Part shown: piece by piece, positions 299 to 28,983 of the stretch
Layout: each line of letters starts with the position of its first letter
How positions within the stretch are numbered: the stretch's first letter is position 1
IMG/VR virus record: IMGVR_UViG_3300019458_000016
Span: 1-40,370 of that record
DNA: 40,370 nucleotides
DNA from: a virus
Direction: 5' to 3' (one strand)
The notes under the pieces: model-generated
Databases searched by the model: none
Told to the model about the DNA's origin: nothing
What the model saw: only the letters and a program-made list of their open reading frames with translations
Made by a program: the position numbers and the translations under genes

Positions 299-1804
299 TT
301 GGATATTCTTGAACAAAAAATAAAGTCTGTTTCGGCTGAATCTAAAATAGCAGCACTTAGAGCCATTTATGCTAAAGATTTTAAATTATATTTAAAAAAT
401 TTAGTATATTCTTTAGATGAACATTCTAAAACAGGAGAAGCAATCAAAAGACTTCCTGATTGGGACTATCTATATGAGTTGGCTGATGATCTGTTAAAAT
501 ATAATTGGATATTTGTGTTGAAATCCAGACAGATCATGGCAACATGGTTATTGGTAGCTTATGAATTATGGATAATTCTTTTTCATAAAGGAAAAAAAGT
601 AGCATTTCAATCTAAAAAAGGAGATGATGCTGATTCTTTAATTCAGAGAGCCAAAATTATTTATGATAAATTGCCAGGTTGGAAACCCCAGGCAGATTTT
701 AGTTATTGCCGTATTAAAATACCTGAAATGTATTCTGATGGATTTGGAATTCCACAAGGGCCAGAACAGGCTAGATCATATACTTTTAGTAGTTTCTTTT
801 CAGATGAATTTGGTTTTCAAGAAAATAGAGAGAAAACTTTTGCTGCATCCAAGCCCGCTGTAGATGGTGGTGGACAGTTTATTGCTATTACAACTCCCCC
901 AGAAGAAACGGACTTTGTTTCAGTATGGGAAGGAAATGAAGTATTTCAAGAACCAAAAGGCAAGTTTGTTAAAATTCACTATAGTCGCAGACCAGACCGT
1001 GATGAGGCATGGAAACAGGAAGCAAAGAAAGGTTATACAGAAGATGATTGGAACCGCGAATATGAGTTAATCAGTGTTCCTAGAGGACTTCGTAGAGTAT
1101 TTAATTGTTTCTTCGTTACTAAACACGTTAATCCTTTTTTAATATACCAACCTGGCCGACCTGTATTAAGAGGTTGGGATTTTGGTTTTGTAAGACCAGC
1201 GGTAGGATGGAGTCAAATTACAGATAGAGATCATTGGAATGATTTATATGAATTGCTCGGACATAATGAAGATTTGGAAACATTTGTTCCTAAAATAATT
1301 AAAGAATCAAATTTACATTTTCCAGATGCTCAATTTATAGAGTATGTAGATTATGCTGGCAATCAGAGATCAGATAAAAGTAAATTAACTTCAATTCAAA
1401 TTATGAGAGATTTATTAAAAATTCCAACTAATCAACCTATTTATTGTAAACCCAGATTAGATATAGAAGAAGGACATAAGATTATTAGAAATAAAATGAT
1501 CACAATGAATGGAGACAGGCCTACTTATCAGATTCATCCATCATGTAAACACTCTATTGATGCGTATAGTTATGGCTATTTATACAAAGCTGACGGAATA
1601 GATATAGTGGCCGATAAAGGTCATGGTAAAGAAAAAGAAAAAGATTATTATAAACACTTAATGGACGCCCGAAGATACCGTATGCAGAATATCTATAGTC
1701 CTATAACAGGAGGGCATCTTAATATAATTACTAAATTAAATGCTCGTAAAACTTCTAGCCCTATAAGTATTACACAAAGACTTAATGCAAGAAAGGTGAG
1801 TTAA
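299..1804 (+). CDS. terL: Terminase large subunit
   Basis: 501 aa with a TTG start. Motifs seen: deviant Walker A-like LKSRQIMAT, Walker B-like FFSDEFGF, and nuclease-domain aspartate motifs RGWDFGF and HLMDARRY. The stop overlaps the next start (TAATG at 1802..1806). Confidence 0.9.
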   Translation: MDILEQKIKSVSAESKIAALRAIYAKDFKLYLKNLVYSLDEHSKTGEAIKRLPDWDYLYELADDLLKYNWIFVLKSRQIMATWLLVAYELWIILFHKGKKVAFQSKKGDDADSLIQRAKIIYDKLPGWKPQADFSYCRIKIPEMYSDGFGIPQGPEQARSYTFSSFFSDEFGFQENREKTFAASKPAVDGGGQFIAITTPPEETDFVSVWEGNEVFQEPKGKFVKIHYSRRPDRDEAWKQEAKKGYTEDDWNREYELISVPRGLRRVFNCFFVTKHVNPFLIYQPGRPVLRGWDFGFVRPAVGWSQITDRDHWNDLYELLGHNEDLETFVPKIIKESNLHFPDAQFIEYVDYAGNQRSDKSKLTSIQIMRDLLKIPTNQPIYCKPRLDIEEGHKIIRNKMITMNGDRPTYQIHPSCKHSIDAYSYGYLYKADGIDIVADKGHGKEKEKDYYKHLMDARRYRMQNIYSPITGGHLNIITKLNARKTSSPISITQRLNARKVS

Positions 1805-3921
1805 TGCCAACAGTAATAAATGATAAAGAAAACTATATGGGCGAATCAGACCAGGAGTTCACCATTGATCCAAAGAATTATGCTAGTGATGAAGAATTAT
1901 CTGGTCGAGCATTGGAGTTAGTACGAAGTATTGGTATAGAATTAGAAACTAGACGTTCTTCTTTAAATGAAAGATATCTTGAATACTACAATGCTTATCG
2001 TTGTCAATTCGACGTCCGTTATTATCAAGGAGAATCGCAAGTTTATATTCCAGAAATTCGTAAAATTGTAGAACAGTGGGTAAGTAGAGTTAAAAAAGCC
2101 TTATTTCCTACAGATGATGTTTTTGAAGTTGAACCTATTGATCCAGAGCAAGAAGATGAAGCTGAATTAATAGAAGATTATTTAAAATGGACTATTGATA
2201 AAAGAGTAAAATTAAAATCTTCTATAGATCGTTTTCTTAGAAATCTGGGACTATATGGGTGGGCATTGGTTGAATGTGGATGGGAAGAAGATATTAAAAA
2301 GGTGCTTGGCCTTGCCAAGAGACAGAAACCAATATTTATTACAGAAGTTGATCCAATTACAGGAGAGAAAACTCAAGTAGAAACTGGTGAAGTTGAGACA
2401 GAAGTTTATGAGACTGTAAAAGAAATTGTCAAAAAAAGAAATCCAACTTTTGATTCTTTAGATAATTTTGCTGCTTATATGTGGCCTAATACTGCCAATT
2501 CTATAGATGAAGTATATGGGGTTTTAACTTTTAGTAAACCTACATTGAATGATTTATTAGTCAAACAGCATAAAGGAATTTATGAAAATATTCCAGACCA
2601 TGTTTCAGAACGATTAGATATGATGGATCAATGGAAATGGGCATTAGAGGCAAGATTAAATGTTGATGGATTGTCTGATGAAGAATATAGAAATATTGTT
2701 CCTAGACTTACATTAATTAAATATTATGGACTATTCAATTGGGGAACAGAAACAAATCCAGATGAGCAAGAAACAGTTATTACAACTATTGGTGGGAATA
2801 TTTGTATTGAGCTAAGAAAGTGTCAATACTATGATCAGGATAAACCATATCTTTTAGCCAGAATTAATGAATTACAAAATGAAACTCATTCAATGGGTAT
2901 TGTAGCTCCTTTGATATCTATGCAGTGGTATTTGAATGATACAGCAGCACAAACATTTGACAGTAGTTATTACAGTTTAAATCCGATTGTCAAATATAAT
3001 CCTGGTATGGTTTTAAATATTGATTCTATTGCTTTTGCGCCAGGGGCTATGTGGGCTTTGAGCGATCCTACTGCTGCTGATATTATTAGACCACCGGAAG
3101 TTGCTAGTCTTGGTTTTCAAATTATGGGGGCTGTTAAAAGTTATATTGAAGAATATCCTGGTTTACAGAATGTACCTATTACTGGGCGAAAAGCTGCATT
3201 ACATATTCAGGCATTACAAGAACAATATTTAGTACCAATCCAACAGGTTGTAGAGAATTTAGAAGAAACTGTTATGTCCCCCTGGTTAAAGAAAGCATAT
3301 AATCGTATTCAACAGTTTTTAAATAAGGCTGAAATTGTAAAGGTTACAGGTAAAAATGGTATGAAATATTGGAGAACCATTTCGCCTGAGAATCTAGTTG
3401 GAGACTATAATTTTTATTGGCGTGGAGCAAATCAAACAACTAATCTTCATGTAAAGTCTCAACAGATAGCCCAATATTTAAATACATTGGCTCCTTGGGT
3501 TCCATTATTTTTACAGACACAGAAGATACCAAATGTTCAATGGTTATTTGAACAATACTGGTCAGATGGTTTGGGATTAAAAGGCAAAAATAAATTATTT
3601 GATAGTTTAGCTGATTATCCTAGTCTTGAACCTGAGATTGAAAACTTTATTATGTCTCTTGGTAAACCATTGCCTACTAGTGTTGCTGATGATCCACAAT
3701 ATCATATGCAGGTACATGAGATTCTTCTTCAACATGAAAGTCAAGAAGTAAGACAGATTGGACAGATGCATATTCAGAAACATAATGAAGATTTAGTAAA
3801 ATTGCAGAAGTTGATGCAGCAACAAATTCCTGCTCAAGACATACAGAATCAAAATGAGGCTGAAGCTAGCGGAGAAGAAGTACAAGGAGAAAGACAAATG
3901 GAATCTAACCAACCAGTTTAA
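1804..3921 (+). CDS. Portal protein (call rests on position and size)
   Basis: 705-aa ORF translationally coupled to terL and located upstream of the scaffold and capsid genes. It has a Q/E-rich acidic C-terminus. No motif-level proof by eye. Confidence 0.75.
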   Translation: MPTVINDKENYMGESDQEFTIDPKNYASDEELSGRALELVRSIGIELETRRSSLNERYLEYYNAYRCQFDVRYYQGESQVYIPEIRKIVEQWVSRVKKALFPTDDVFEVEPIDPEQEDEAELIEDYLKWTIDKRVKLKSSIDRFLRNLGLYGWALVECGWEEDIKKVLGLAKRQKPIFITEVDPITGEKTQVETGEVETEVYETVKEIVKKRNPTFDSLDNFAAYMWPNTANSIDEVYGVLTFSKPTLNDLLVKQHKGIYENIPDHVSERLDMMDQWKWALEARLNVDGLSDEEYRNIVPRLTLIKYYGLFNWGTETNPDEQETVITTIGGNICIELRKCQYYDQDKPYLLARINELQNETHSMGIVAPLISMQWYLNDTAAQTFDSSYYSLNPIVKYNPGMVLNIDSIAFAPGAMWALSDPTAADIIRPPEVASLGFQIMGAVKSYIEEYPGLQNVPITGRKAALHIQALQEQYLVPIQQVVENLEETVMSPWLKKAYNRIQQFLNKAEIVKVTGKNGMKYWRTISPENLVGDYNFYWRGANQTTNLHVKSQQIAQYLNTLAPWVPLFLQTQKIPNVQWLFEQYWSDGLGLKGKNKLFDSLADYPSLEPEIENFIMSLGKPLPTSVADDPQYHMQVHEILLQHESQEVRQIGQMHIQKHNEDLVKLQKLMQQQIPAQDIQNQNEAEASGEEVQGERQMESNQPV

Positions 3922-3937
3922 TAAGGGAGGAATAGTA

Positions 3938-4135
3938 ATGCCTATGCAATATAATACCTGGGAAAAAGCTGAAAAAAGATATAAAGAAATGGGAATGTCT
4001 GAAAATCAAATTGGACAATATAAAAAATCATGGATGAAGAAACATAAAAAAGATACTTCCATAGCTGGTAAAATTAAAAGTAGAAAGAAAACATTAGAAG
4101 AATTAGAGCAATCATTAGATGGGAAGGAATTTTAA
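3938..4135 (+). CDS. Small basic hypothetical protein (65 aa)
   Basis: ATG at 3938 lies 7 nt after the SD AAGGGAGG (3923..3930). The ORF-track start at 3854 would overlap the portal gene and has no SD. Confidence 0.6.
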   Translation: MPMQYNTWEKAEKRYKEMGMSENQIGQYKKSWMKKHKKDTSIAGKIKSRKKTLEELEQSLDGKEF

Positions 4136-4137
4136 AG

Positions 4138-4305
4138 ATGCCACTTACTAAAAAAGGACGAGAGATTAAAAAGGCTATGCAGAAACATTATGGTAAAGAA
4201 AAAGGTGAACAGGTATTTTATGCTTCTGAGAATAAAGGAACGATCAAAGGCGTAACTAGAAAAGAACGGAAACTTGAAAAACGACTAAAGAATAAGAAAA
4301 TTTAA
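4138..4305 (+). CDS. Small basic hypothetical protein (55 aa), below the ORF-track size cutoff
   Basis: ATG at 4138 follows GGAAGGA. Translation is MPLTKKGREIKKAMQKHYGKEKGEQVFYASENKGTIKGV... It fills an otherwise empty gap. Confidence 0.55.
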   Translation: MPLTKKGREIKKAMQKHYGKEKGEQVFYASENKGTIKGVTRKERKLEKRLKNKKI

Positions 4306-4306
4306 C

Positions 4307-4468
4307 ATGAAGATTGATCTAAATAAGTATGATTTTGGTATTGATGAAATTGAAGCAGAACCAAAAGTAAAGAAGTTTAAACTACATTTAAAACCAAAAG
4401 ATAAACAATTAGGTTATACCAAAAAGCCTAATACAAAAAGGGTGATAGATGGAAAAACCGATAATTAA
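4307..4468 (+). CDS. Small hypothetical protein (53 aa), below the ORF-track size cutoff
   Basis: ATG at 4307 lies 1 nt after the previous stop (TAACATG). It overlaps the next ORF by 20 nt. No clear SD. Confidence 0.4.
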   Translation: MKIDLNKYDFGIDEIEAEPKVKKFKLHLKPKDKQLGYTKKPNTKRVIDGKTDN

Positions 4469-4817
4469 AAAAATATCTGATCAAGCTAGTGAACATTGTG
4501 CCAAGATTCTTGAAAATATTAAAGCTGCCGAAGAGTTTGATGAATTGTGTAAAACAAGTCCTGATATGGTTAAACAAATATTTTTAGATGGTATGAGAAC
4601 AGATTTTTGGAGATTATTTAAAGGATTGCTTTATAGAACAAAGTATTCTATGGAGCAGAATCTACAAGCTAAGTCATGTAATACTTTAGATGATTTAGTT
4701 ATGTTAGGAAAATTTAATACTATTTATAAACAAACAGATGAGATAGTGAATATGCCAGAAGCTATTGTCAAAACACTATTACATCGTAAAGAAAAGCCAA
4801 TCGCCGGAGGGCGTTAA
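4449..4817 (+). CDS. Hypothetical protein (122 aa)
   Basis: ATG is preceded by AGGGTGA. The ORF sits in the head-gene block between the portal and scaffold genes. Confidence 0.7.
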   Translation: MEKPIIKKISDQASEHCAKILENIKAAEEFDELCKTSPDMVKQIFLDGMRTDFWRLFKGLLYRTKYSMEQNLQAKSCNTLDDLVMLGKFNTIYKQTDEIVNMPEAIVKTLLHRKEKPIAGGR

Positions 4818-4832
4818 TCTTAGGAGGAACAA

Positions 4833-5561
4833 ATGGCTAAAAACAAAACGTCAGAGACTGATCAGACGTTAAATGATGAAGTCGAAGAAACAGAAGAAAC
4901 TTCTGAGGAACAACCAAAAGAAACAGAGGAAGAAGTCGAAGAAGAAGAGGAAGTGGTTGAGGAAGAGCATGAAGAGAAAGTCCCTTATTCACGTTTTAAG
5001 GACGTGATTGAGGAACGAAATAATCTTCGTAGTCTAACTGAAACACTTACTCAAATTGCTTCACAAAATAAAAATCTAACTCCCCATGATAAAGGTTTTG
5101 AATGGCCTGAAGGTACTGATGTTGAAACTCGTAAAGCTATCGAAAGCTATTACGATAAAAAGACAGGTGCAGACAGGTCATCTACTGAACAGATTCTTGG
5201 TGGAGTATTAGATAAACTTGATGAAGTTAAGGCTTTTTCTAGCCGTCCTGACATTAAGAAACATCTTAATGCTGTAGAGACACTTAGGAAGGAATTTGCC
5301 AATAAAGGGGTCTATCTTACAAGAGAGGATGCGTTTGATATGTTAGTAGGACGTGGAACGATTAAATCTGATAAATCTGGAAAAACTATAAGCGTTAAGA
5401 AAACTAATGTTAAGGTTTCTACAGAAAAATCTGGGGTTCGTGGAGAATCTTCTGATACAACAAGTAATAAAAAGAAAGGCCTATCTAAAATGTCTGATGA
5501 GGAATTAACTAAACTCTCAGATAAAGATTTAGAGAAAGCTATGGAAAACGTAAGATTTTAA
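4833..5561 (+). CDS. Scaffolding protein (putative)
   Basis: Strong SD TAGGAGGA. The N-terminus is highly acidic and E-rich (EETEETSEEQPKETEEEVEEEEEVVEEEHEE) and the remainder is helical and charged. It lies immediately upstream of the capsid gene. Confidence 0.6.
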   Translation: MAKNKTSETDQTLNDEVEETEETSEEQPKETEEEVEEEEEVVEEEHEEKVPYSRFKDVIEERNNLRSLTETLTQIASQNKNLTPHDKGFEWPEGTDVETRKAIESYYDKKTGADRSSTEQILGGVLDKLDEVKAFSSRPDIKKHLNAVETLRKEFANKGVYLTREDAFDMLVGRGTIKSDKSGKTISVKKTNVKVSTEKSGVRGESSDTTSNKKKGLSKMSDEELTKLSDKDLEKAMENVRF

Positions 5562-5589: not shown

Positions 5590-6999
5590 ATGTTTAATTG
5601 GTTAAAAAATGTGTGCCTGTCTCTTTTGATGCCTTCTATGTCTGGTAGTGCTGGTGAGACCACAAGTGCAGTATTAGGTAATTATACTGTTCAGTCTGGT
5701 TCTGATGCTATTCAGTATATTGCACAAAAGACACTTCGTATTGCACACAAGGTTCTTCGATTTTATGATTTAGCTGAAAAAGCCAAGTTGCCAAGTAGAG
5801 AATCTAAGACATTTCAGTATACTCGTTATGAGAGGTTGCCCCTTCCTATCGCTACTTTGATAGAAACGGTTTCGGGGACTCCTGCTACAATGGCTATTAC
5901 GACTGTCGAAGCAACTGCTGAACAATGGGGTACTTTTGTAACTATCTCAGACGTGGCCGAATTAACTATCAAACATAGCCCATTTATGAAAGCAAATGAG
6001 CTATTAGGGAAAAACTCTGGTGAATTGGTTGAACGGGAATGTTTTAATGTTCTCGTAACTGGTACATCTATTTTCTTCCCTGGTACTATTACGGCTAGAT
6101 CTTCAATAACTTCAACTGATGTTGTTGGGGTAGATACATGGAGAAGGATGGTTGCTGATATTCGCAATAAAGGTGCGGATGGTATGCAACGCAGTAAGGA
6201 TGCGGAAGATAATGAATTGGGAGACGAATATATTGCTGTTCTTGACCCATTCATGGAATTTGATGTTAGTTCCGATCCAGACTTTATTGATTCTGTGAAA
6301 TATGCTGCTGCAAAGCGACTTTGGAATGGAGAGATTGGTAAACTTGTAGGAACACGATTCTTGCGATCTAATTCTCTGCCCACTCTGATTAGCTCTGCTG
6401 CTCCAACACAGGCTACAAATGAGGGTGGTGGAAACATCCCTTTGCGATATGTACGGACAATTTGTGTAGGTTATGATACTACATTTAATTATCCTACATT
6501 GATCACACAAGCTGTAGAGAATGATTTGGGCGCTGGCGATACTGACGATTCAGTTAGCGTAACTACACCTAATAACTCTGCTTATCGGTGGAAGATTTTT
6601 ACAAGTAATAGTGCGTCTGCTGGTGCTGCTACTGCTACGAAATATCGTCAAGCAGGTAGTGGGTTTTTAGCACAAAATGTTACTGTAGAAATCGGTGATA
6701 CAGCTAATGCGAATGGTACTACTATCTTTGCACTTGTTACTTCTGGCGAATCTGCTGGCAGTATCTTGGCTGAAATGCAATCTTCTACTAGCAAAGTCCA
6801 CGTTGGATTTTTGTTTGGTAGGGAAGCCTATACTGTTGTTGATCTACAAAATCTAACTTCTACCTTAACCCCCCCTGGGGCATCTACAGGTGATGAGTTA
6901 GGTTTGAAGCGTAGTGTTGGTTACAAACTGATGTTTAAATGTGTAATCAATAACAACAATTTCTTTAGCCGTGTAGAGGCTGAATCTGCATTTGATTAA
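5590..6999 (+). CDS. Major capsid protein (HK97-fold type, putative)
   Basis: 469 aa directly after the scaffold gene. The N-terminal region AQKTLRIAHKVLRFYDLAEKAKLPSRESKTFQYTRYERL resembles the conserved N-arm/P-domain start of podoviral capsid proteins (from memory). It is followed by hairpins. Confidence 0.8.
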   Translation: MFNWLKNVCLSLLMPSMSGSAGETTSAVLGNYTVQSGSDAIQYIAQKTLRIAHKVLRFYDLAEKAKLPSRESKTFQYTRYERLPLPIATLIETVSGTPATMAITTVEATAEQWGTFVTISDVAELTIKHSPFMKANELLGKNSGELVERECFNVLVTGTSIFFPGTITARSSITSTDVVGVDTWRRMVADIRNKGADGMQRSKDAEDNELGDEYIAVLDPFMEFDVSSDPDFIDSVKYAAAKRLWNGEIGKLVGTRFLRSNSLPTLISSAAPTQATNEGGGNIPLRYVRTICVGYDTTFNYPTLITQAVENDLGAGDTDDSVSVTTPNNSAYRWKIFTSNSASAGAATATKYRQAGSGFLAQNVTVEIGDTANANGTTIFALVTSGESAGSILAEMQSSTSKVHVGFLFGREAYTVVDLQNLTSTLTPPGASTGDELGLKRSVGYKLMFKCVINNNNFFSRVEAESAFD

Positions 7000-7141
7000 T
7001 CTTAGCTGATGAAATGCTAATAGGCTAGGATTTGGGTGGAGTAGTACCAATTTATAAAATCTTTATAAGTGTTGGTGCGAGGATGATCACAAATAGCATG
7101 TGATGAGGGTTACTTTTGCTATACAAAAATAGAGGATAAAA

Positions 7142-7729
7142 ATGTCCAAAAAATTGTCAGATTTTGAAGAAAGTTTATTTGAACCAGAATCTATTGAATT
7201 AAAAGGAGTTATAATAAACGCTGGTGAAGTGAAAACTGGTTATATAAGCCCTTTAAAAAGACGGGGTAGACCAAAGGGTTCCAAGAATAAAGTAAAAGAT
7301 AGTGCCGGAGTAGCTCCAAAGGCAGAGCAGTTGCCTTGTAAGCAAACGGTTGAAGGTTCAAATCCTTCCTCCGGCTCCATTGATTCTAAGATAGAAAAAA
7401 TAGAAAAATCATTAGACTTATTAACTCAAATTGTTTCTGGATTAGTTGATACTAAAAAGAAAGAACAAGATGATGCTGCCAAACTTTTACTAGAGACTGC
7501 CAAATCTGTTCAAGATAAGATTGAAAATACAAATGAACCTAAAATAAATGTTAATGTTGATCCTGAAATTACTATAAATGGTGTACGATATTATGGTTTG
7601 GTTAATGTGCCAATTAGTTTAGCAAATAGATTAAAAGATATGATGAAATCTAGATCAGATATGAGAGCAATGGAACCTGTATTTGTTGATCATAGAACAG
7701 GACAACCATTAGCTATATTGAAAGGATAA
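7142..7729 (+). CDS. Hypothetical protein (195 aa) with an AT-hook-like KRRGRPKGSKNK; the ORF contains a complete tRNA gene
   Basis: SD AGAGGA lies 5 nt before the ATG. No alternative start codon exists downstream of the tRNA for the protein-like C-terminal half. Whether the whole ORF is translated is uncertain. Confidence 0.5.
   Translation: MSKKLSDFEESLFEPESIELKGVIINAGEVKTGYISPLKRRGRPKGSKNKVKDSAGVAPKAEQLPCKQTVEGSNPSSGSIDSKIEKIEKSLDLLTQIVSGLVDTKKKEQDDAAKLLLETAKSVQDKIENTNEPKINVNVDPEITINGVRYYGLVNVPISLANRLKDMMKSRSDMRAMEPVFVDHRTGQPLAILKG
7304..7379 (+). tRNA. tRNA-Thr (anticodon UGU) with encoded CCA
   Basis: Manual cloverleaf fold. Acceptor stem is 7/7 bp (GCCGGAG/CTCCGGC). D stem GCTC/GAGC has a GG-containing loop. 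Anticodon stem is 4 bp plus a G-A mismatch, with loop CTTGTAA. Variable loop is 5 nt. T arm is GAAGG-TTCAAAT-CCTTC. Discriminator T is followed by CCA. The only oddity is C at position 14. Confidence 0.85.
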
Positions 7730-19573: not shown

Positions 19574-19892
19574 ATTTTCTCACCTTCTCTACTAATTGTT
19601 GATTAATTGTGTTTAATTGTGATAATTCTTTCTCTTGCTTTTCAATAATTTCAATTGCATTTTCAATAGTAGCTTGATAACAAATATGAGCCTCATTAGC
19701 TACAAGAGACATATTATAGTTATATTTCCAAGTAGGTAGGACAGTCCAGCGTATCCATCTGTGTAATATATGTTTAAAATGCCTAAACCTCATGCTCAGA
19801 GCTATATGAAATTCTTCCGGTATTTTAATGTATTTTTTCATTACCAAATACCACACTATTTTGTCCTTTAATGAACCCCTCTTGGAGACCAT
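19365..19892 (-). CDS. Hypothetical protein (175 aa; possible start at 19841)
   Basis: The N-terminal two thirds look protein-like (..ATIENAIEIIEKQEKELSQLNTINQQLVEKVRKY). The last ~70 aa are K/R-rich and overlap 19298..19573 out of frame. Confidence 0.5.
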   Translation of the reverse strand: MVSKRGSLKDKIVWYLVMKKYIKIPEEFHIALSMRFRHFKHILHRWIRWTVLPTWKYNYNMSLVANEAHICYQATIENAIEIIEKQEKELSQLNTINQQLVEKVRKYVQFFRNYGIGEEVLEMDFGSRTTGSGLSAFRIDESKNKKVRSRSTGKKEKGKNTRKAPRNRKRLYREV

Positions 19893-27471: not shown

Positions 27472-28983
27472 TTATCCAATAAAATTACCTTTATCCCATT
27501 CAACTTTAAGGCAATTAAAATAATCTTTCACATACCGCTTATGTTTTATACCTGTTATCCAGATATCTGTTTTGTTTTTATCTTGCACCATTCCGATAAT
27601 AGTATCTGCTATTGCTCCTTTATACATCTTAGCTTCTGATATCATATCATCTCTAAGTCTGTAACACCAGGGTTCTTTACTGTAATCTATATAAGAAATT
27701 AGAATATGGTCTAATACAAGAATATGACAGTTATTATTTCTTGCTATGTTTGCCAATGTCATTACGGTATCTCTAACTTCAAATCTGGATTCCCCTAATC
27801 CTCTTTGACTAGGTATTCTGAAAAAATAATCTATAATCACCAAACCTGGATTTATTTCTTTTATTTGTCTTTCAATCTCGTTCAGTGTTACAGGTTGTTT
27901 AGTAGCATCTAAAAAAAATATATCCGCATCATATTCTTGAGCAATAAATTTAGCATCATATTTATTTTTAATACTACCTAGCATATCTTCATAAAACACA
28001 TGAAGAACATTAAATCCTTTCTTTCTAGCATTACTTCCTATAAAACATGCTAGGTGGGTTTTACCTGTACCCTGTTTAGCTATAAGAAAAGAAGTCTCTC
28101 CAACACCTAACCCACCGTCCAAATAAGAATCCAGGCCATGTATTCCTGTGGGAATGGTTTCCACTTTTGGAAAAGACTGGTCTTTTAAACTACTGTATCT
28201 ATAAATTTGTGTGGGAATAGGACTGGCTTCCATTAATCTATCAGAATTATTTAAAGCATTTTCGCTGTCTGCCGAAACGGTATTATATACAGAAACCGAA
28301 TTAAAAGAAGGGGAATACTTTGATATGCTTTCTGCTATTGTTCTAACTTCACTTTCTGGTAATGGTGGGATACATCTTTCCATATTTGTTTCATATAAGG
28401 CCGTAAAAATGGCATTAAAACTTAACCCTTTTCTTCGCATACTGCCAGCAAGTGAAGTAAGATAATTATTTCTACCACCTTGTAAGATAGGTGTAGTAAA
28501 TTCTCTAAACCCTACAGATATTCGTGGTTCATTTAATTTTTCTTTCAATTCTTTTGGAAATTCTGCCAATTCACATTCCCAAGGAGCTATAGTCCATTGA
28601 TAGGGTTTACCTGTATCAGGATGTATGCTTGGCGGGATTACAACATACCCGTTATCGCTTCTAAGGTCTACTTTTTCCGCAATCTTTCCGACACTGTTTC
28701 TAATTCCCTCTTGATATTTAAAATAGTAATGAAACCCTCTTCCTGTAATAGCACAAGGAGTTAGGTAAAAAGCAACTTTGGAAAGTATCTCAGTATCTAC
28801 TTTATCAATGTCTACAACTATAATTCCTGATACTTTACCAGTTTGAACACCTATATTTCCTTCTTTTTCAATATTAAAAACATCTTTATTTTGCCATTCC
28901 TTGTTTATTGGTATTTTTCCATTTAAATTCAATAACTTCCATCTTAATTTTTGGTATTTCTCAATCAAAAAAGACTTATCCAT
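27472..28983 (-). CDS. Bifunctional prim-pol primase / PriCT / DnaB-RecA-like helicase
   Basis: IIVVDIDKVD, GRGFHYYF and DLRSDNGYVVIPPSIHPDTGKPYQW give the prim-pol part. GGRNNYLTSLAGSMRRKG is PriCT-like. Walker A AKQGTGKTH and Walker B LVIIDYF give the helicase part. Confidence 0.88.
   Translation of the reverse strand: MDKSFLIEKYQKLRWKLLNLNGKIPINKEWQNKDVFNIEKEGNIGVQTGKVSGIIVVDIDKVDTEILSKVAFYLTPCAITGRGFHYYFKYQEGIRNSVGKIAEKVDLRSDNGYVVIPPSIHPDTGKPYQWTIAPWECELAEFPKELKEKLNEPRISVGFREFTTPILQGGRNNYLTSLAGSMRRKGLSFNAIFTALYETNMERCIPPLPESEVRTIAESISKYSPSFNSVSVYNTVSADSENALNNSDRLMEASPIPTQIYRYSSLKDQSFPKVETIPTGIHGLDSYLDGGLGVGETSFLIAKQGTGKTHLACFIGSNARKKGFNVLHVFYEDMLGSIKNKYDAKFIAQEYDADIFFLDATKQPVTLNEIERQIKEINPGLVIIDYFFRIPSQRGLGESRFEVRDTVMTLANIARNNNCHILVLDHILISYIDYSKEPWCYRLRDDMISEAKMYKGAIADTIIGMVQDKNKTDIWITGIKHKRYVKDYFNCLKVEWDKGNFIG

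Follow-up and report, generated by a model that had tools for sequence, protein, structure and literature searches.

A tRNA-Thr(UGU) gene lying in frame inside a capsid-adjacent protein gene of an uncultured phage, and the probable use of the same 76 nucleotides as linker codons

The window analysed here is the whole stretch of 40,370 bp, a complete virus record with terminal repeats, whose genes, by PHROG annotation, are those of a tailed phage of lytic type. Its structural genes encode a large terminase, an SU10-type portal, a scaffold-like protein, a major capsid protein, an internal virion protein and a tail fibre, and genes for DNA polymerase A, a primase-helicase, a Cas4-like exonuclease and an endolysin are found on the other strand. 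The best match of the capsid protein among deposited phages is only ca. 25% identical, so that no cultured relative can serve as a source of annotation. The capsid gene is followed by an ORF of 195 codons with a complete tRNA gene inside it, and then by a small partner gene (Table 1), homologues of which sit 3' of the nested-tRNA gene or of its homologue in four other contigs (L009, L004, L017 and L040). A scan of the + strand found no terminator-like site between the capsid gene and the ORF, and a simple promoter and terminator scan around the ORF rendered, for the same strand, nothing beyond the expectation from shuffled sequences. Since no terminator is detectable after the capsid gene, the ORF is probably carried on the same abundant late transcript.

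Table 1. Positions in the window of the features of the nested-tRNA locus and of the second tRNA slot of the clade
Feature	Position	Strand	Description
Major capsid protein gene	5590..6999	+	phrog_1357 major head protein, E 2.6e-33; immediately upstream of the 195-codon gene
Shine-Dalgarno sequence AGAGGA	7131..7136	+	5 nt ahead of ATG 7142
195-codon gene	7142..7729	+	variable N-terminus, AT-hook-like motif, tRNA-encoded linker (predicted disordered), C-terminal helix/beta-hairpin/helix
AT-hook-like motif KRRGRPKGSKNK	7256..7291	+	residues 39-50
tRNA-Thr(UGU), 76 nt	7304..7379	+	ARAGORN; Rfam RF00005; anticodon 7337..7339; CCA 7377..7379
Conserved C-terminal domain	7382..7726	+	helix 80-128, hairpin 134-157, helix 158-182
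Conserved partner gene, 89 aa	7734..8003	+	own start; begins 4 nt past the stop codon of the 195-codon gene
Primase-helicase gene	27472..28983	-	interdomain linker is the second tRNA slot of the clade; empty in the window

An earlier note, made from the letters of the window, had described a cloverleaf with an encoded CCA at this position, on the same strand as the ORF and wholly within it, behind the Shine-Dalgarno sequence AGAGGA. The cloverleaf is borne out by ARAGORN, which called tRNA-Thr(tgt) as the sole tRNA in the window, and by Rfam, where the RF00005 score is 62.4 bits against a gathering score of 29; the nesting follows from the agreement between the ARAGORN call and the ORF list. 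There is one non-standard pair in the Rfam alignment (27-43), the loops are canonical (CUUGUAA and GGTTCAAATCC), and the 3' CCA is encoded. A thermodynamic fold of 7254..7429 recovered the acceptor and T arms and failed to recover the D and anticodon arms, with a z of -1.2, which is uninformative for a tRNA. The tRNA begins at codon phase 0 of the ORF; in frame it supplies residues 55-79 and the first base of codon 80, with the translation AGVAPKAEQLPCKQTVEGSNPSSGS. ACA makes up 216 of the 519 Thr codons in the structural genes of the window, and a tRNA-Thr(UGU) would serve the A-ending Thr codons of the phage.

Upstream of the tRNA, the ORF encodes the AT-hook-like motif at the place where the earlier note had put it. 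R-G-R-P and G-S-K-N-K are unvarying across the related lineages described below, with codons that vary synonymously, and a profile of this stretch matches proteins with multiple AT-hooks, such as P0013, in which PF02178 is found at an E of 8e-6. The Pfam AT_hook model PF02178 itself reported no match for the ORF even at E<=10 (for the motif of P0016 the E was 0.32), because a lone motif of 13 residues scores too low. The label AT-hook-like is used here for the RGRP core and the profile matches to multi-AT-hook proteins, the Pfam model not being reached. An AlphaFold2 model of the ORF product, built with the family alignment, predicts residues 1-79 to be mostly disordered, with a short low-confidence helix at 4-13 and a pLDDT below 50 across most of the tRNA-coded residues (55-79); residues 80-182 are modelled as a long helix, a beta hairpin and a further helix, and for residues 81-120 and 131-180 the pLDDT is ca. 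82-94, with a dip to ca. 75 at 121-130. In every lineage, the T arm and the 3' acceptor strand encode a stretch rich in Gly, Ser, Ala and Pro (G-S-N-P, G-A-N-P, G-A-S-P or G-S-S-P), a composition that appears linker-like. The product has no Pfam or PHROG match, the C-terminal domain, used as a tblastn query, matched none of 50,697 phage records, and Foldseek with the AlphaFold2 model returned nothing at E<=0.001 from PDB and BFVD, the best matches being prefoldin-like coils and unnamed phage proteins.

Relatives were recovered through the capsid protein and an exhaustive profile search, which added five lineages from independent metagenomes to that of the window. Lineages A (the window), B (L009 and three more contigs), E (L016) and F (L017 and L018) carry a Thr(UGU) tRNA in the slot, and lineages C (L004) and D (L005 and others) carry one with a CAU anticodon. 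The lineages are diverged, with capsid proteins ca. 65% identical or less, and the nested-tRNA gene is always found just downstream of the capsid gene wherever the contig extends that far. In each of the six, the same ribosome-binding site and ATG head a frame that runs uninterrupted through the GRPxGSKNK motif, a complete tRNA and the conserved C-terminal domain; AGAGGATAAA followed by ATG is common to five of them, and lineage F reads GGAGAATAAA. The Rfam RF00005 scores of the slot tRNAs in the relatives range from 41.9 to 53.4 bits, including the CAU tRNAs of lineages C and D (41.9 and 46.6 bits, respectively), which ARAGORN missed; the CCA is encoded in lineages A-D and absent from the genes of E and F. 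These six lineages are not independent observations, and amount to about three independent frame-keeping events, namely the nesting itself, the swap from Thr to CAU, and a compensated indel in the D loop. Two separate genes around an intergenic tRNA, the arrangement that would, by the earlier note, speak against its reading, were found at the related locus in no tRNA-bearing relative.

Additional searches did not extend this set. A word-indexed protein search gave no lineage beyond those already recovered, a metagenome scan with the capsid alignment gave five loci and zero new lineages, and scans of viral contigs with the family alignments gave the same contigs plus one distant homologue that is tRNA-free. 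The profile search rendered 48 matches in the homologous protein family, stand-alone C-terminal domains included. The distant homologues, 90-131 aa in length, stand alone and share the C-terminal domain, and a KKKRGRPRK motif occurs in some of them; no tRNA was found in any of five genomic contexts, where they are single small genes, and two homologues (P0004 and P0051) are known as protein sequence alone. Because these distant homologues are tRNA-free, the tRNA can be taken as a feature of clade A-F, and the combination of an AT-hook-like motif and the C-terminal domain would be the older architecture. The slot may have originated by entry of a tRNA into an existing linker, or an upstream tRNA may have been absorbed when the gene gained an N-terminal extension.

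An open frame across a tRNA is by itself weak evidence of coding, as the earlier note had cautioned and as a control with the 23 tRNAs of phage T5 (AY543070) confirmed: nine of them (39%) lack a stop in the frame in which the anticodon forms a codon, and one and six, respectively, in the other two frames. With chance-open frames that common, and with an ORF that matches nothing in Pfam or PHROG, the ORF could be an artefact of gene prediction, a chance open frame around an intergenic tRNA. It is the comparative evidence that takes the nested frame beyond chance. By the Nei-Gojobori method, dN/dS is 0.07 (B-C) and 0.26 (C-D) for the N-terminal segment and 0.15 (B-C) and 0.10 (C-D) for the C-terminal segment, a range of 0.07-0.26 that covers lineages B, C and D, and differences in the flanks peak at third codon positions (for instance 0.14/0.06/0.33 between C and D). 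At the level of sequence comparison, these values demonstrate that both flanks are coding and under purifying selection on the protein. With coding signatures on both sides of the tRNA, a conserved Shine-Dalgarno sequence and ATG, a homologous protein family represented by the 48 profile matches, and a confident predicted fold for the C-terminal domain, the chance-ORF reading is highly improbable and, as far as the comparative data go, already refuted.

The tRNA segment shows a different pattern of change. No codon periodicity is found in it, and its third-position divergence is far lower than that of the flanks (0.23 vs 0.52 between A and B, 0.08 vs 0.33 between C and D, and 0.16 vs 0.56 between E and F). 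Across the six lineages, 95.2% of the cells of the cloverleaf are paired, with changes on both sides in 16 of the 21 pairs; none of 500 shuffles reached the observed cloverleaf score, and controls with slid partners were 36-53% paired. This segment of 76 nt evolves as a tRNA. Pairs 4-7 covary among the four Thr lineages, in which G1-C72 and C2-G71 do not change. G1-C72 and C2-G71 are identity pairs of the bacterial threonyl-tRNA synthetase (ThrRS), and their constancy would be the pattern expected from selection for charging. Together with the UGU anticodon, likewise unvarying in the Thr lineages, these two pairs are the sole indirect pointer to aminoacylation, and we infer that the tRNA-Thr(UGU) is processed and charged. 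As judged from the alignments, selection on tRNA structure and selection on the continuity of the ORF fall on the same DNA.

The serious rival to a working tRNA gene accepts that the protein is read through, and holds that the cloverleaf carries no amino acid. It would be either a cis-acting RNA element in the shape of a tRNA, such as an RNase P site at which the capsid message is cut from the genes downstream, or a structure governing mRNA stability or ribosome traffic, or else a recent relic in decay. Several features fit with this. Position 55 in the T loop, where U is nearly universal, is G in the tRNAs of lineages B, C and D; the CAU tRNAs reach only 42-47 bits and escape ARAGORN; pair 27-43 is non-standard in four of the six lineages and 13-22 is also mismatched in several; and the identity of the anticodon has been swapped without apparent harm, as would suit a role of shape only. 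However, the anticodon loops are canonical in all six lineages (U33 and a purine at 37), the first two acceptor pairs stay constant in the Thr lineages while their neighbours covary, and the CCA is encoded in A-D. Moreover, G55 is also present in an intergenic tRNA-Pro of the same phages that nevertheless scores 62.8 bits, so that it would be usual for tRNAs in this clade and no mark of decay, and a relic would not hold 95% pairing at such divergence. We therefore consider the cis-element or relic reading unlikely, although it deserves to be weighed.

The history of the slot bears on how the ORF is expressed. Between lineages B and C the flanks are close, only 0.33 different at third positions, and the tRNA segments differ at 50-62% of sites, which amounts to a replacement confined to the tRNA in which small flanking indels restore a multiple of 3. 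The alignments document the exchange of the tRNA within a single slot, its length staying similar and the frame intact. In lineages E and F the D loop is 1 nt shorter and the first base of the tRNA falls at codon phase 1, not 0, and the ORF is still open. The anticodon is read as a codon in every lineage, UGU as Cys and CAU as His. The nested tRNAs are 76 or 73 nt long, neither of which is a multiple of 3, so that excision of the tRNA and rejoining of the flanks would shift the C-terminal domain out of frame; an intron-like excision with re-ligation is ruled out on these grounds.

Initiation downstream of the tRNA was also considered. The earlier note had stated that there is no start codon after the tRNA, and this holds for the first 73 codons of the window past the tRNA, a stretch that contains the most conserved helix; beyond them it does not, with in-frame start-type codons at 153 (TTG), 156 (GTG), 167, 168, 174 and 177 (ATG) and 193 (TTG). 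In lineages A-D, the 19-73 codons that follow the tRNA contain no in-frame ATG, GTG or TTG, the nearest being a TTG of lineage D 19 codons on (codon 87, the tRNA ending at base 163), and neither a conserved start nor a conserved Shine-Dalgarno sequence was found after the tRNA in the lineages compared. Leaderless translation of the 3' cleavage product was rejected as well, since the TTG (window) or ATG ATG (C and D) that comes after the CCA is out of frame and its frame soon closes. Without a usable start after the tRNA, and with excision breaking the frame, the tRNA must be read as ca. 25 linker codons. Of the two options left by the earlier note, a tRNA translated as a linker or a C-terminal part that is not coding, the single open frame in six lineages and the purifying selection on the flanks decide in favour of the first.

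It might still be argued that there are two products, a short N-terminal peptide resulting from cleavage of the mRNA and a C-terminal domain translated from an unconventional start, the continuous frame being tolerated and unselected. In the JGI annotation the gene is split: lineage B has a 73-aa product that starts at an internal GTG (P0050), and lineage F has one of 126 aa (P0005), whose GTG lies within the 3' end of the tRNA. The distant stand-alone homologues, moreover, begin about where the tRNA ends. The annotated starts, however, lack conservation: the GTG of F is GTT in E, and the GTG of lineage B lies 40 codons into the conserved domain. There is no SD-like sequence ahead of any candidate start, the conserved helix comes right after the tRNA without a start in every lineage, and the frame has survived both the tRNA swap and the 1-nt change in tRNA length. 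An internal control is provided by the intergenic tRNA-Pro(UGG) of lineage D, located upstream of the scaffold gene and ending at 2719, after which the next gene, in contrast, has its own ATG at 2737, 17 nt past the tRNA. Two separate products are thus very unlikely.

Whole tRNA sequences in phage genomes can also be looked at from the side of integration. tRNA genes are the commonest integration targets, and differing tRNAs at one locus are typical of swapped integration modules. In the fusellovirus SSV1, the attP lies inside the integrase gene, so that there, as in the window, a tRNA-derived sequence is in frame within a viral ORF. The nested tRNA could then be an attP copy of a host tRNA gene that lies in the gene by chance, and the different tRNAs found at one locus in related phages would agree with this. 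Yet what SSV1 holds is a tRNA fragment used for recombination, with an integrase present, whereas the window has a complete covarying tRNA and no integrase was found: a six-frame search of the complete 40,370-bp genome found neither a tyrosine nor a serine recombinase (PF00589 and PF00239, E<=1), and the records of four relatives contain no tyrosine integrase (PF00589). In addition, the gene set is of the lytic type, the whole cloverleaf covaries including the 5' half that an attP core does not need, and the gene has no relative in the 185,579 bacterial and archaeal genomes that were scanned. An attP is scarcely credible for this locus, primarily because no integrase was found in the genome.

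The capsid-adjacent gene is not the only one in the clade to hold a tRNA. In the primase-helicase genes of relatives, the interdomain linker contains a tRNA(CAU) of 44.2 bits within a 504-aa frame (lineage B) and a tRNA-Trp(CCA) of 59.2 bits within a 515-aa frame (lineage D), both nested in frame, with the anticodon again read as a codon. The corresponding linker of the window is of similar length and gave no tRNA match even at E<=10. This second in-frame slot indicates, as far as can be judged from the sequences, that the nesting of tRNAs in linker codons is a habit of the clade and not a one-off.

Full-text literature searches found no phage report of such nesting, the only precedent found being selB-selC, which is the closest published case. 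A bioinformatic study of Alphaproteobacteria described selC, which encodes tRNA-Sec, nested in the selB ORF, and proposed that a transcript whose tRNA folds and is processed can no longer yield the full-length protein (Mukai 2021, Int J Mol Sci 22:4605, PMC8124441). Both there and in the window an entire sense-strand tRNA is found in a protein ORF and would be translated as extra residues, the layout is conserved in relatives, and the evidence is bioinformatic. The differences are several. In selB the tRNA forms a C-terminal extension and the core protein is complete before it, whereas in the window it is in the middle of the protein; since a conserved domain follows, translation through the tRNA would be obligatory, unlike in selB-selC. 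In the bacterial case tRNA and protein serve a single pathway, whereas in ours they are functionally unrelated. The nested selC tRNAs are 96 or 93 nt long, a multiple of 3, whereas in the clade of the window the tRNA has 76 or 73 nt and the flanks complete the frame. The identity of the tRNA has been swapped between relatives in the phage clade (from Thr to CAU), unlike in selB-selC. Finally, selB-selC is located on a bacterial chromosome and the window belongs to a lytic-type phage. In the phage, in sum, the tRNA is internal, exchangeable and unrelated in function to the protein, and reading through it would be obligatory.

A further example, taken from compact animal mitochondrial genomes and cited in the same study (PMC8124441), is the tRNA-Lys inside cox1 of Armadillidium vulgare, where, as in the window, a whole tRNA lies in direct orientation inside a coding region. 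As presented in that citation, the nested tRNAs of animal mitochondria are reduced, of 60 nt, and are found under extreme compaction, whereas that of the window is a full-size canonical cloverleaf placed in a tolerant linker predicted to be disordered. Among phages, the T5 record (AY543070) contains coding sequences that overlap tRNA ends by 6-24 nt (T5.057 with tRNA-Met, hegC with tRNA-Ser, and T5.069 with tRNA-Asn). These overlaps are partial, affect the ends of genes and involve mostly small hypothetical ORFs or homing endonucleases; unlike in the window, no whole tRNA is found in T5 between two conserved parts of one protein. Co-transcription of tRNAs with a protein gene is known from the thrU-tyrU-glyT-thrT-tufB operon of E. 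coli. In T5 and in this operon, as would be the case in the window, tRNAs arise by maturation of transcripts on which protein genes are carried as well.

Taken as a whole, the observations make it probable that 7304..7379 has a dual use, being a working tRNA-Thr(UGU) gene and also 25 codons of a disordered linker in a small protein of the virion module. Ribosomes starting at ATG 7142 would read through the tRNA and produce the protein of 195 aa. Alternatively, the cloverleaf would fold, and host RNase P together with 3' processing would release the tRNA. Since excision of the tRNA would cut the message, no full-length protein would be obtained from that molecule, and the downstream genes would keep their own starts. 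We infer that the two fates of the transcript, tRNA or protein, would compete, and that this competition would lower the yield of the nested-gene protein relative to that of the capsid protein.

It is possible, although we lean against it for the present, that disordered linkers of phage proteins are general landing slots for exchangeable tRNAs, of which the clade provides two, in the capsid-adjacent AT-hook-like protein and in the primase-helicase, and that the nesting acts as a working switch on the state of translation. Ribosome traffic would melt the cloverleaf, so that a translated message would give protein and an untranslated one would be cut by RNase P to give tRNA. If such a switch were true, the supply of tRNA and the dose of the protein would depend on the state of translation in the infected cell.

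In annotation practice, a stretch of DNA is taken as either a tRNA gene or a protein gene, and tRNAs are masked by pipelines ahead of gene calling, a practice that leads to shortened calls of 73 and 126 aa for the nested-tRNA gene family in public data. A tRNA that doubles as obligatory coding sequence would be a clean natural case of dual coding on 76 nt. It suggests that one late transcript could be shared, in a built-in manner, between a tRNA and a protein, and it may offer compact phage genomes a route to gain and exchange tRNAs without the need for intergenic space. Moreover, with a phage case in which the tRNA identity has been swapped and a second slot is present in the clade, the selB-selC precedent would grow from a curiosity into a pattern.

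The interdomain linker of the primase-helicase is a second slot that carries a nested, in-frame tRNA, as found in relatives' records of lineages B and D (see table). In lineage B this tRNA has a CAU anticodon and lies within an open frame of 504 aa, and in lineage D it is a tRNA-Trp(CCA) enclosed in an open frame of 515 aa. The window bears a homologue of the gene, with no tRNA in its linker (about 28190..28310); this linker terminates in a comparable Ser/Pro-rich stretch and may retain there a decayed remnant.

Lineage D has further tRNAs. A tRNA-Pro(UGG), missing in the window and in lineage B, is located upstream of the scaffold gene, and the gene that follows it has its own ATG 17 nt past the tRNA. 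The only open frame across a tRNA-Tyr(GUA) of this lineage amounts to 39 aa, and this tRNA is therefore probably intergenic. Position 55 of tRNAs is nearly universally U (pseudouridine). In lineages B, C and D, by contrast, T-loop positions 54-56 of the tRNAs read T-G-C rather than T-T-C, which places a G at position 55; this holds for the intergenic tRNA-Pro as well.

Features identified in the window and its relatives (L, locus; G, relative's record)
Feature	Source	Coordinates	Remarks
Nested tRNA, primase-helicase linker	G001 (L041)	28456..28528	
Nested tRNA, primase-helicase linker	G002 (L042)	3490..3562	
Nested tRNA, primase-helicase linker	G003 (L044)	19729..19801	
Primase-helicase homologue	window	27472..28983	(-) strand
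tRNA-Pro(UGG)	L007	2645..2719	lineage D; intergenic, ordinary; likewise in L005, L008, L010, L014
tRNA-Tyr(GUA)	L043	1039..1112	lineage D; weak, 40 bits
tRNA-Tyr(GUA)	G004	5338..5410	as above
tRNA-Tyr(GUA)	G003	28601..28673	as above
tRNA with T-G-C T loop	L009	5694..5769	
tRNA with T-G-C T loop	L004	3404..3479	
tRNAs with T-G-C T loop	L005	4127..4202; 1080..1154	
Small basic ...GK(K/S)F genes	L007	2022..2931	
Small basic ...GK(K/S)F genes	L009	2492..2847	
Small basic ...GK(K/S)F genes	window	about 3854..4817	
Additional 235-aa gene	L004	4110..4817	lineage C; between 86-aa partner gene and adaptor-like gene

The 235-aa gene of lineage C is missing in the window and in lineage B. The portal-scaffold interval holds a run of small genes for very basic proteins, every one of which has ...GK(K/S)F at its C-terminus; the number of these genes varies among lineages, and they look like tandem paralogues.

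Because of the tRNA, the nested gene is shortened in public gene calls, one of them a 73-aa product started at an internal GTG (P0050, lineage B) and the other a 126-aa product whose GTG start lies within the tRNA 3' end (P0005, L017 394..774). Two variants of the nested-gene product come from the protein collection and are known here as proteins only. P0004 (98 aa) is a lineage B form from which, as read from the protein, an in-frame deletion would have removed most of the C-terminal domain. In the D-like P0051 (127 aa), the tRNA-coded residues are identical to those of lineage D, the flanking helix differs at about one third of its positions, and the tail looks chimeric.
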